This document shows, piece after piece, positions 38,299-40,173 of a DNA stretch of 48,223 nt. The notes beneath the pieces were generated by a model. That model saw only the letters and a list, made by a program, of their open reading frames with translations. It had not been told where the DNA came from and did not search any database. Origin of the DNA: Escherichia phage Turner; sequence record PP925837.1. One strand, given 5' to 3'. The position numbers and the translations under genes were made by a program. Every line of letters starts with the position of its first letter. Position 1 is the stretch's first letter.

Positions 38299-38886
38299 AA
38301 CCCCACCTCGCAGACAAAGCGGGTGTAAATTGAGGGAATACAACGTATCGCAAAAAAGCAGAAACGTAACAGACTCGGAGTCAGTGAATAACTCAGGTAT
38401 TGAGTTATCAGCTAATATCGAGACTCAAAAAATGGAAAAACCAGCTCGACGGCGGGTTTAAGCTGTGTGACGAAGTAACCACTCTTAACAGCATAACCAA
38501 TTTTTTACGTACGTAAACCACTGAATGATATTTATGAGAATGCTACCGAGTGTTCAAAACACCACCACAAATACATAAGAAAACCTCAACAAACAACCAA
38601 TAAATAATTTCCGGCGTTATTTTTAGTTAATTTAAATTAAACCACCGAATTATAGAACCCCCATAAATAACAGCCATTAATATAAATTAGCTAATAGGTT
38701 TATTTTTGTTCAAATAAGAGCCATAAATAGGTTTCGATAGAAAAAGTTCAGATAAAAATAGAGATCTACTTCACAAATTAAATGAGAAACTAAAACTTAC
38801 ATCTTGAAATAATCACATTGATTAGATGAATATTTATCGCGCAGTGACATCATTTTTTAATAATAGTTCAAAAAAAAGGGCTCACG

Positions 38887-39984
38887 ATGAAAAAATTAAC
38901 AGTGGCAATTTCTGCTGTAGCTGCATCAGTACTGATGGCGATGTCTGCTCAGGCAGCTGAAATTTATAATAAAGACAGTAACAAGCTGGATCTGTACGGG
39001 AAAGTTAATGCCAAGCACTACTTTTCCTCTAACGATGCAGATGATGGTGATACTACTTATGTTCGTCTGGGCTTCAAAGGCGAAACCCAAATCAACGATC
39101 AGCTGACTGGTTTCGGTCAGTGGGAATATGAATTCAAAGGCAACCGCGCTGAATCTCAAGGTTCCTCCAAAGACAAAACCCGTCTTGCATTTGCAGGCCT
39201 GAAATTCGGTGACTACGGCTCAATCGATTACGGCCGTAACTACGGTGTAGCATACGACATCGGTGCGTGGACTGACGTTCTGCCAGAATTCGGTGGCGAT
39301 ACCTGGACCCAAACAGATGTGTTCATGACTGGTCGCACCACTGGTGTTGCAACCTATCGTAACAACGACTTCTTTGGTCTGGTTGATGGTCTGAACTTTG
39401 CTGCTCAGTACCAAGGCAAAAACGATCGTAGCGATTTCGATAACTACACCGAAGGTAACGGTGATGGCTTCGGTTTCTCTGCTACCTATGAATACGAAGG
39501 GTTCGGTATCGGTGCAACTTATGCGAAATCTGATCGTACCGACACTCAAGTTAATGCAGGGAAAGTTCTTCCTGAAGTATTTGCTTCCGGTAAAAATGCA
39601 GAAGTTTGGGCCGCAGGTCTGAAATATGACGCTAACAACATTTACCTGGCCACTACCTATTCTGAAACCCAGAATATGACTGTATTTGCTGATCACTTCG
39701 TTGCTAATAAAGCTCAAAACTTCGAAGCTGTTGCACAATATCAGTTCGATTTCGGTCTGCGTCCGTCCGTTGCTTACCTGCAATCTAAAGGTAAGGATCT
39801 TGGAGTATGGGGCGATCAGGACTTAGTCAAATATGTTGATGTAGGTGCAACCTATTACTTCAACAAAAATATGTCTACTTTCGTTGATTACAAAATCAAC
39901 CTGCTTGACAAAAATGACTTCACTAAAGCACTCGGTGTAAGCACTGATGACATCGTTGCTGTAGGTCTGGTTTACCAGTTCTAA
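38887..39984 (+). CDS. nmpC: outer-membrane porin NmpC/OmpD-like (OmpC/F family), intact
   Basis: 365 aa; signal peptide; C-terminal ...VAVGLVYQF; convergent cargo gene between Q and the lysis cassette, as in DLP12. Confidence 0.93.
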
Positions 39985-40116
39985 TCTGATTACGAAAAAG
40001 ATATGTTGCGGGAGGCTTTGCCTCCCCAACATATAAGTGGCTCCCTCAAGCCACTTCCTTTAGGAGCACAACCTTGCTTCTAACTATATAAACCTTCTGT
40101 TATATATTACCCTTTA

Positions 40117-40146
40117 TTTTTGGGGGCGTTGCAACGCCCCATTTTT
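40117..40146 (+). terminator. rho-independent terminator downstream of nmpC
   Basis: Palindrome ggggcgttgcaacgcccc (40123-40140) followed by atttttaataattttt. Confidence 0.6.
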
Positions 40147-40173
40147 AATAATTTTTAGTAAACAATTGGCATA

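Follow-up and report, generated by a model that had tools for sequence, protein, structure and literature searches.

The window analysed here is a 48,223-nucleotide stretch of DNA from Escherichia phage Turner (PP925837.1), and the locus in question (38344-40173) carries a porin gene that lies between the gene of the late antiterminator Q and the lysis genes. The porin is encoded by an uninterrupted open reading frame (ORF) of 365 amino acids on the plus strand (38887-39984), the sole long plus-strand ORF of the region. To its right, the minus strand carries a Q antiterminator gene of the QuuD type (40174-40557, 127 amino acids; PF06530, E 9.7e-54), after which come rusA and the nin genes. The genes to its left, likewise located on the minus strand, code for an S21-type holin, a SAR lysozyme and Rz. 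The first late gene is the holin/antiholin gene with the dual start MKSM (38083-38298; Phage_holin_2_1, E 3.5e-35; sequence ATGAAATCCATGG), and the holin arrangement annotated in phages 21 and 434B is the same. A preliminary description of this DNA had called the porin gene intact and antisense to the late genes, which is borne out by the present analysis. It had also called the gene convergent with Q and the lysis genes, and here only the part concerning Q stands, as porin and holin are divergent and arranged back to back.

The porin aligns with the Pfam domain Porin_1 over its entire length (positions 1-337 of 337, E 1.8e-156) and is identical to the Lc porin of phage PA-2 at 362 of 365 amino acids (99%). 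Its first 23 amino acids are identical to the annotated PA-2 signal peptide, and its C-terminus (...LVYQF) ends in an aromatic residue, so that the complete domain, the signal peptide and the C-terminal aromatic residue typical of the general porin family (OmpC/OmpF/Lc/NmpC) are all present. Near identity to PA-2 Lc together with the position between Q and the lysis genes assigns it to the Lc/NmpC phage porins. At the nucleotide level, 38344-40173 shows 97.3% identity with the lc sequence of PA-2 deposited in GenBank in 1986 (J02580) and 100% identity with several E. coli chromosomes, and the exact porin protein is found on at least 1000 contigs, under names that include 'outer membrane porin protein LC'. 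In the DLP12 prophage of E. coli K-12 and in phage 434B, which carries a DLP12 segment, nmpC is broken by IS5 after codon 346. The locus is thus the already known cassette of Lc/NmpC porin and the small RNA IpeX, and not a new kind of system. In E. coli N68 (1118-2400), a porin and a 90%-identical IpeX tail adjoin ybcM with no Q gene alongside, which indicates that the cassette also exists outside the context of Q and the late promoter pR'.

The preliminary description had concluded that late transcription, starting downstream of Q, must cross the porin gene antisense to reach the holin. This conclusion is not supported by the position of the pR' homologue, which we found on the holin side of the porin on the minus strand, with a -35 element TTTACG at 38517-38512, a -10 element TATGCT at 38495-38490 and a start at the A in position 38483. 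The Q protein of the window shares 78.6% of its amino acids with Q of phage 933W and 81.7% with Q of H-19B, which makes these phages the right comparators. Their pR' has the same -35 element and the same spacing (TTTACG-16-TATCAT, versus TTTACG-16-TATGCT in the window), and the score in a position weight matrix (PWM) is 8.2 bits here compared with 9.2 bits in 933W. By blastn, the minus strand of 38518-38436 matched 933W (E 7e-12) and H-19B (E 5e-13) with 76-77% identity over 83 nt, and PhiR40_1 with 85.5% identity (E 9e-23). The homology runs from the -35 element via the start region TAAGAGTGGTTAC to the first leader hairpin with its U-tract; CGTAAAAA(A)T between the -35 and -10 elements and GTGGTTAC after +1 are conserved with both 933W and PhiR40_1. 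In the same region we noted no direct repeat like the Q-binding element (QBE) of Q21 and no clean TAnnnT pause hexamer. The predicted start of 933W, 7 nt past TATCAT, precedes the second annotated terminator by 258 nt, which fits the PR' start reported 258 nt upstream of tR' by differential RNA sequencing and Term-seq in the Sakai strain.

K-12 is identical to the window over the pR' block except for one base, and its published Cappable-seq list contains a plus-strand start (U00096.2 576,452, equal to U00096.3 577,229) at exactly the A that is homologous to the 933W start and corresponds to 38483 in the window. The conversion between the two K-12 sequence versions uses an offset of 777 nt. It is confirmed by the two K-12 starts considered in this study (576,452 and 576,081), each of which falls 7 nt past a -10 hexamer. 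All porin-carrying loci examined have the motif TAAGAGTGGTTAC on the side of the porin that faces the holin, and in PhiR40_1 the same motif and pR' block are found past another antisense gene located after Q. For the DLP12 lysis cassette, Rueggeberg and colleagues reportedly placed a promoter responsive to both Q and RpoE upstream of essD, which would agree with this position. In a paper citing that work, a promoter fragment from -121 to +650 was used. The Q module of the window combines a Q protein of the PF06530 family with a promoter whose start is mapped in the K-12 orthologue; between this start and the lysis genes there is a leader hairpin resembling a terminator, S beginning 185 nt downstream of the start, while the pR' homologue neither abuts nor overlaps the Q stop codon but is found 1.66 kb away from it, past the porin. 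The hairpin and its U-tract (38430-38459, minus strand; hairpin 38438-38459, +25 to +46 of the pR' leader) are a candidate for tR'. From the position of the pR' homologue it follows that Q-dependent late transcription would start at 38483 and proceed away from the porin.

Several observations weigh against this assignment. The pR' of 933W is itself annotated as 'putative', the K-12 start that corresponds to 38483 is a weak one (relative score 1.7), and the RNA start and end data used here come from K-12 and Sakai, not from this strain. Moreover, the spacer between Q and the porin in K-12 and PA-2 contains a promoter-like sequence, TTGAGA-19-TAATAT, that reaches 8.6 bits.

The stop codons of porin and Q are separated by 189 nt, which fold into five hairpins on the plus strand. 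H1 (40001-40034) is the strongest, with a 15-bp stem (core 40010-40026) and -22.2 kcal/mol; it is followed by H2 (40035-40056, -10.5 kcal/mol), H3 (40060-40083, -9.7 kcal/mol), the weakest hairpin H4 (40085-40106, -1.9 kcal/mol) and H5 (40123-40140, -13.9 kcal/mol), whose stem is followed by AUUUUU with the U-tract at 40141-40146. Three of these hairpins (the H1 core, H2 and H5) had been pointed out before and proved to be real, H3 and H4 are additional, and the proposal that the last one is a terminator agrees both with a terminator scan, which called H5, and with a Term-seq 3' end of K-12 at the homologous U-tract. The earlier suggestion that an IpeX-like RNA might be encoded here was also correct, even if such an RNA is already known from this place: in the alignment with K-12, 185 of 189 nt are identical at the same position, and the sequence lies between the nmpC/lc stop codon and a Rho-independent terminator, as expected for IpeX. 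The tail differs by four nucleotides from K-12 DLP12 and likewise from PA-2 (185/189 identical); three of the four differences are located in hairpin loops and one changes an A-U pair to G.U. According to reviews, IpeX is a 167-nt RNA of DLP12 and PA-2 which originates from the porin promoter, is processed from the porin transcript and lowers OmpC and OmpF.

The minimum free energy of the 167-nt tail is -62.4 kcal/mol, compared with -32.7 +/- 3.8 kcal/mol for dinucleotide shuffles (z = -7.9; none of 200 shuffles was as good). On the basis of the sequence identity, this folding score and the K-12 3' ends, we regard 39985-40146 on the plus strand as a structured 3' untranslated region (UTR) of the porin mRNA equivalent to IpeX. 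The K-12 Term-seq data, whose coordinates were mapped using the 50+1+10 sequence window given in the table, contain abundant porin-sense 3' ends at 574,366/7, corresponding to 40146/7 in the window, that is, to the last U after H5. A second abundant porin-sense 3' end at 574,476 corresponds to 40037, 3 nt past H1, and suggests a stable decay or processing product that ends at this very strong hairpin. H1 has no U-tract on the porin-sense strand. Of 5426 complete E. coli genomes, 2510 contain the tail spacer, which is annotated in none of them; ipeX is also missing from the RefSeq annotation of K-12, an Rfam scan of 36000-42500 with E values up to 1 gave no match, and a contig scan for more distant tail copies returned only E. 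coli contigs or contaminated contigs of metagenome-assembled genomes. In a comparison of ten tail copies, which differ little, the stems vary slightly, compensatory or double changes are absent and several single variants break pairs. The structure of IpeX thus rests on thermodynamics only.

Taken together, the locus is very probably the lysogenic-conversion porin cassette of a lambdoid prophage of the PA-2/DLP12 type, placed antisense between Q and pR' and bypassed by late transcripts. The cassette would be self-contained, consisting of an AT-rich promoter region, lc/nmpC, the structured 3' UTR (IpeX) and its own intrinsic terminator, and it would represent an antisense moron that separates the Q gene from its cognate pR'. 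The late promoter would have stayed beside the holin (38483, minus strand), firing away from the porin and back to back with the porin promoter; Q would act on it in trans, and late transcripts would enter S-R-Rz and the structural genes and never traverse the porin gene. On the opposite strand, H5 would end the porin/IpeX RNA at about 40146. In a lysogen, the porin mRNA would give rise to Lc and its 3' UTR to IpeX, lowering OmpC and OmpF. As the antisense cassette separates Q and pR', porin expression and late transcription would not collide.

The porin promoter itself should be located in the AT-rich region upstream of the gene (38519-38886, plus strand; 28.5% GC), in which the best sigma-70 match by PWM is TTGAAA-18-GAATAT at 38804 with a predicted start near 38840; a CRP site of the PA-2 record maps to about 38759-38779 in the same region. 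With its own terminator and a promoter, the latter predicted, with its position between conserved functions and with its apparent dispensability, the cassette shows the features that define a moron. This is further supported by the K-12 3' end at the terminator and by relatives with other or no cargo at the junction, and phage 434B has been reported to grow with the whole DLP12 segment from Q to the lysis genes, including the IS5-disrupted gene. In large part the locus re-describes textbook lysogenic conversion, Lc/NmpC and IpeX being present in about half of the sequenced E. coli, and in this respect adds little that is new. The loss of adjacency between Q and pR' is, however, common to the whole PA-2/DLP12 group, and assuming that the two are always adjacent misplaces the late promoter in this large group of phages. 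The only part that could change current belief is a predicted pairing of IpeX with the mRNAs of host porins.

This pairing was analysed against the leaders of K-12 mRNAs by windowed duplexes, run-length statistics and opening energies; full-length duplex folding of IpeX and the leaders was set aside, as it forces end-to-end duplexes. IpeX 40091-40105 (AACCUUCUGUUAUAU) and positions -21 to -7 of the ompC mRNA (AUAUAACAGAGGGUU) can form 15 contiguous base pairs, 14 of them Watson-Crick and one G.U, in a run that spans the ompC Shine-Dalgarno sequence. After a 5x1 internal loop, nine more base pairs follow between IpeX 40111-40119 and ompC -31 to -23. The duplex has a predicted energy of -24.8 kcal/mol, of which 4.4 and 5.0 kcal/mol are needed for opening, leaving a net value of about -15.4 kcal/mol. 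The two anti-Shine-Dalgarno motifs of IpeX, at 40092-40099 and 40107-40116, are predicted to be accessible, with probabilities of being unpaired of 0.7-1.0. A run of at least 15 bp against the ompC leader occurred in three of 1000 dinucleotide shuffles of IpeX. In the same run-length test, neither the ompA leader nor the leader of the phage's own porin showed an unusual match. OmpA was reportedly unaffected according to the abstract of the original IpeX study. On the side of the RNA, no invariant stretch of the tail is longer than 40090-40116 in ten copies, one of which is the 90%-identical tail from another genomic setting; on the side of the target, 5359 of 5371 E. coli genomes have an ompC leader with at least 99% identity. 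The predicted anti-ribosome-binding-site block thus comprises 40090-40119 on the plus strand (the loop and 3' arm of H4 and a single-stranded linker) and is complementary to ompC -31 to -7 and partly to ompF -14 to +2. The ompF match consists of 10 + 5 bp from the Shine-Dalgarno sequence to the AUG, with a net energy of -8.6 kcal/mol.

The exposed block of IpeX (CCUUCUG...ACCCUUUAUUU) might therefore pair with the Shine-Dalgarno region of ompC and, more weakly, with that of ompF. We consider it an evenly balanced question whether IpeX is a base-pairing antisense RNA whose invariant block AAACCUUCUGUUAUAUAUUACCCUUUAUUU masks the ompC ribosome-binding site (RBS) and, in an overlapping register, the corresponding site of ompF. 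Two points count against it: judged by run length, the match to ompF lacks significance, and according to three reviews IpeX base-pairs with neither ompC nor ompF. Base pairing at the ompC RBS is nevertheless the most likely mechanism in our estimation, although the chances of its being right are about equal to those of its being wrong, and the match appears to be undescribed so far. The predicted duplex, if real, would resemble those of MicF and MicC in its imperfect antisense pairing across the Shine-Dalgarno region of a porin mRNA. IpeX differs from these RNAs in being the 3' UTR of a phage porin mRNA instead of a free-standing chromosomal gene, and no sequence relation at the Rfam level exists.

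An alternative to which we give only a slightly smaller chance is that the hairpins serve solely as terminators or stabilisers, that the complementarity to ompC arose by chance or reflects shared ancestry of porin leaders, and that IpeX, as put forward in reviews, acts indirectly, for example through titration of a factor or envelope stress. The review statements, the weakness of the ompF match and the lack of an IpeX entry in the tables from crosslinking, ligation and sequencing of hybrids (CLASH) with Hfq are all in line with such an indirect action, as is the recovery of a comparable run in three of 1000 shuffles, given that AU-rich sequences yield long chance runs (null mean 9-10). This alternative does not readily account for a match that covers the ompC Shine-Dalgarno sequence, extends to 24 bp and is predicted to be accessible, nor for its absence in ompA and in the phage's own porin leader. 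Furthermore, the pairing block is the longest invariant block of the tail, and structure cannot explain this conservation, H4 contributing only -1.9 kcal/mol. For some twenty years IpeX has been regarded as a porin regulator that works without base pairing, and the accessible, invariant 24-bp match to the ompC RBS makes this view testable. If the pairing is real, it would contradict the review statement that IpeX and ompC lack complementarity, and it would explain how a phage porin mRNA removes host porins, including the PA-2 receptor OmpC, while leaving its own leader untouched.

A second possibility concerns transcripts that leave the Q gene. Read on the minus strand, hairpin 1 followed by CUUUUUCG (39995-40034) is a candidate intrinsic terminator for Q-sense transcripts; it has a folding energy of -22.7 kcal/mol and a U-rich tail and is conserved in all aligned copies, and it was missed by the terminator scan because its stem contains a bulge. 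We infer that it probably ends unmodified transcripts exiting Q at about 39995, and the Q and porin transcription units converge and overlap by approximately 150 nt. The sole transcripts expected to run antisense through the porin are early ones that read through from Q. One can envisage, as a possibility that we rate somewhat below an even chance, a mixed situation in which pR' is located at 38483 but N-modified early transcription in addition passes through Q, H1 and the porin antisense, collides with porin/IpeX transcription and shuts conversion off. N-type antitermination is well known to pass intrinsic terminators in lambdoid phages. The geometry would allow such read-through, as Q and porin converge and only one terminator-like element faces the Q-sense transcripts, and a strong K-12 minus-strand start at the 5' end of the porin shows that this strand is transcribed near the gene. 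On the other hand, K-12 Term-seq data show no Q-sense 3' end in the spacer, though Q is probably silent in the cryptic prophage. In any case, read-through complements the bypass of the porin by pR'-derived transcripts and does not replace it.

The K-12 start just mentioned belongs to a promoter directed towards the holin on the minus strand, with the -10 element TATTAT at 38865-38860 and a start at 38854, which was recognised by its PWM match and by the Cappable-seq start at U00096.2 576,081 (U00096.3 576,858), the strongest of those listed nearby (score 90) and located 7 nt past an identical -10 element. Its start is situated 33 nt inside the porin 5' region, and it overlaps the 5' UTR of the porin, to which its transcript is antisense. 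A stress-responsive promoter has been reported for the lysis cassette of DLP12, and the two may be the same. A sigmaE-like sequence, GAACTA-16-TCACT, is also present at this promoter.

That pR' directly follows Q within 40035-40173, as in lambda, 21 and 933W, and that late transcripts cross the porin antisense to the holin is very improbable: such a layout is canonical for lambdoid phages (the -35 element of phage 21 begins 7 nt past the Q stop codon), and the spacer does contain weak promoter-like matches (TTGCAA-19-TAATAT with 6.1 bits in the window, in addition to the K-12 sequence mentioned above), a -10-like TATAGT 21 nt downstream of TAATAT and, just past the Q stop codon, a GTTTAC...TAAAAAT resembling the -35 element and spacer of pR', but the spacer is homologous to none of the characterised pR' regions, unlike 38518-38436; the candidate -35 element falls in the loop of the porin terminator, where it varies among copies (TTGCAA, TTGAGA, TTGAAA, TGGAAA); a 19-bp promoter spacer is unusual; and the Cappable-seq list includes a K-12 start at the homologous pR' base but no plus-strand start between the quuD and nmpC stop codons. 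The best minus-strand sigma-70 match in the spacer (6.1 bits) even remains below the median of the best matches per 350 nt of the window (7.2 bits). A minor promoter in the spacer is still conceivable. A promoter of the phage 82 type, with TAATAT as -10 element and TATAGT as pause site, was considered, in part because qsr' has phage 82 specificity, and rejected, since Q belongs to the Q21/Q933W family, the -35 element lies in a variable loop and no K-12 start is listed. A literature search with sequence strings of the spacer region found nothing.

On the minus strand of 40140-40165, just past the Q stop codon, GTTTAC-TAAAAAT resembles pR' of the window (GTTTACGTACGTAAAAAAT, 38518-38500) and of 933W (GTTTACGATCGTAAAAAT) and is not followed by a -10 element. 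Possibly it is a junction relic, left behind when the porin cassette came to lie between Q and pR'. A relic of the ancestral 3' end of Q was also sought at 38520-38610 and dropped, the only tblastn match being a non-collinear one of seven amino acids (E 2.1).

The similarity of Q to the Q genes of 933W, H-19B and ev087 stops near 40198, past an RLEMD motif, and relative to 933W approximately 1.68 kb (roughly 40197 to 38519) replace the last 24 or so Q codons. The Q-pR' region of 933W and H-19B with the leader RNA StxS shares with the window the Q subfamily (about 79-82% amino acid identity), the pR' core, the start region and the first leader hairpin. In these Shiga toxin (Stx) phages, however, pR' and the final Q codons overlap, and tRNAs and stx follow downstream as cargo in sense orientation, whereas in the window 1.68 kb of antisense cargo separates Q and pR', and the leader measures 185 nt to S, compared with 258 nt to tR'. 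In PhiR40_1 (2908-3547), a gene for a hypothetical protein of 148 amino acids is located antisense directly after a QuuD-like Q, with the same pR' block beyond this cargo. Lambda_ev087 (2921-3602) has a Blc lipocalin gene in the same antisense position after a QuuD-like Q and is devoid of the TAAGAGTGGTTAC motif; its promoter seems to be another one, TTGCTG-17-TAATGT, located immediately behind Q and with a terminator after it. As phages with related Q proteins carry other antisense cargo after Q, the end of this gene looks like a recurrent insertion point for such cargo.

PA-2 and K-12 DLP12 are among the closest known systems. PA-2 (J02580) has the same gene, the same neighbours, with Rz, lysozyme and holin at one end of the gene and Q at the opposite end, the same 3' tail and the same allele of the leader hairpin, and it differs from the window by three amino acid substitutions and a few base changes. 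DLP12, in which IpeX was defined, shares Q (one amino acid difference), the spacer (four nucleotide differences), the pR' block and the holin; it differs in having nmpC split by IS5, where the gene of the window is intact, in a stronger leader hairpin and in a 16-nt deletion upstream of S. The leader hairpin has -5.8 kcal/mol in the window, PA-2 and ev099, compared with -12.0 kcal/mol in K-12 and -12.7 kcal/mol for its homologue in 933W. It is weakened by a G-to-T mismatch (GCGGG to GCTGG), an allele common to PA-2 and ev099, while the stem is intact in K-12, 4A7, PhiR49_1 and ev243. The G-to-T allele could make the expression of late genes or lysis leakier.

With respect to the neighbouring genes, QuuD is the name given to the exact Q protein, which was found on at least 1000 contigs, the structure of Q21 (6P18) is a distant match, and the TTG listed at 40572 is an upstream alternative start of Q. 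An ORF of 69 amino acids (39823-40032, minus strand), antisense to the 3' end of the porin, is annotated in PA-2 (ORF1) and in 434B (hypothetical protein); its start codon lies inside hairpin 1, and it is probably not a gene. A plus-strand ORF of 57 amino acids (38288-38461) had no Pfam match. In the PA-2 record neither pR' nor IpeX is annotated, and the start region of pR' is labelled as a CRP site (TGTGACGAAGTAACCA). This site (J02580 1067-1087, corresponding to 38463-38483 in the window) is annotated on the opposite strand and overlaps the pR' start and the early leader, so that, if it is real, binding of the cyclic AMP (cAMP)-CRP complex would fall on the late promoter.

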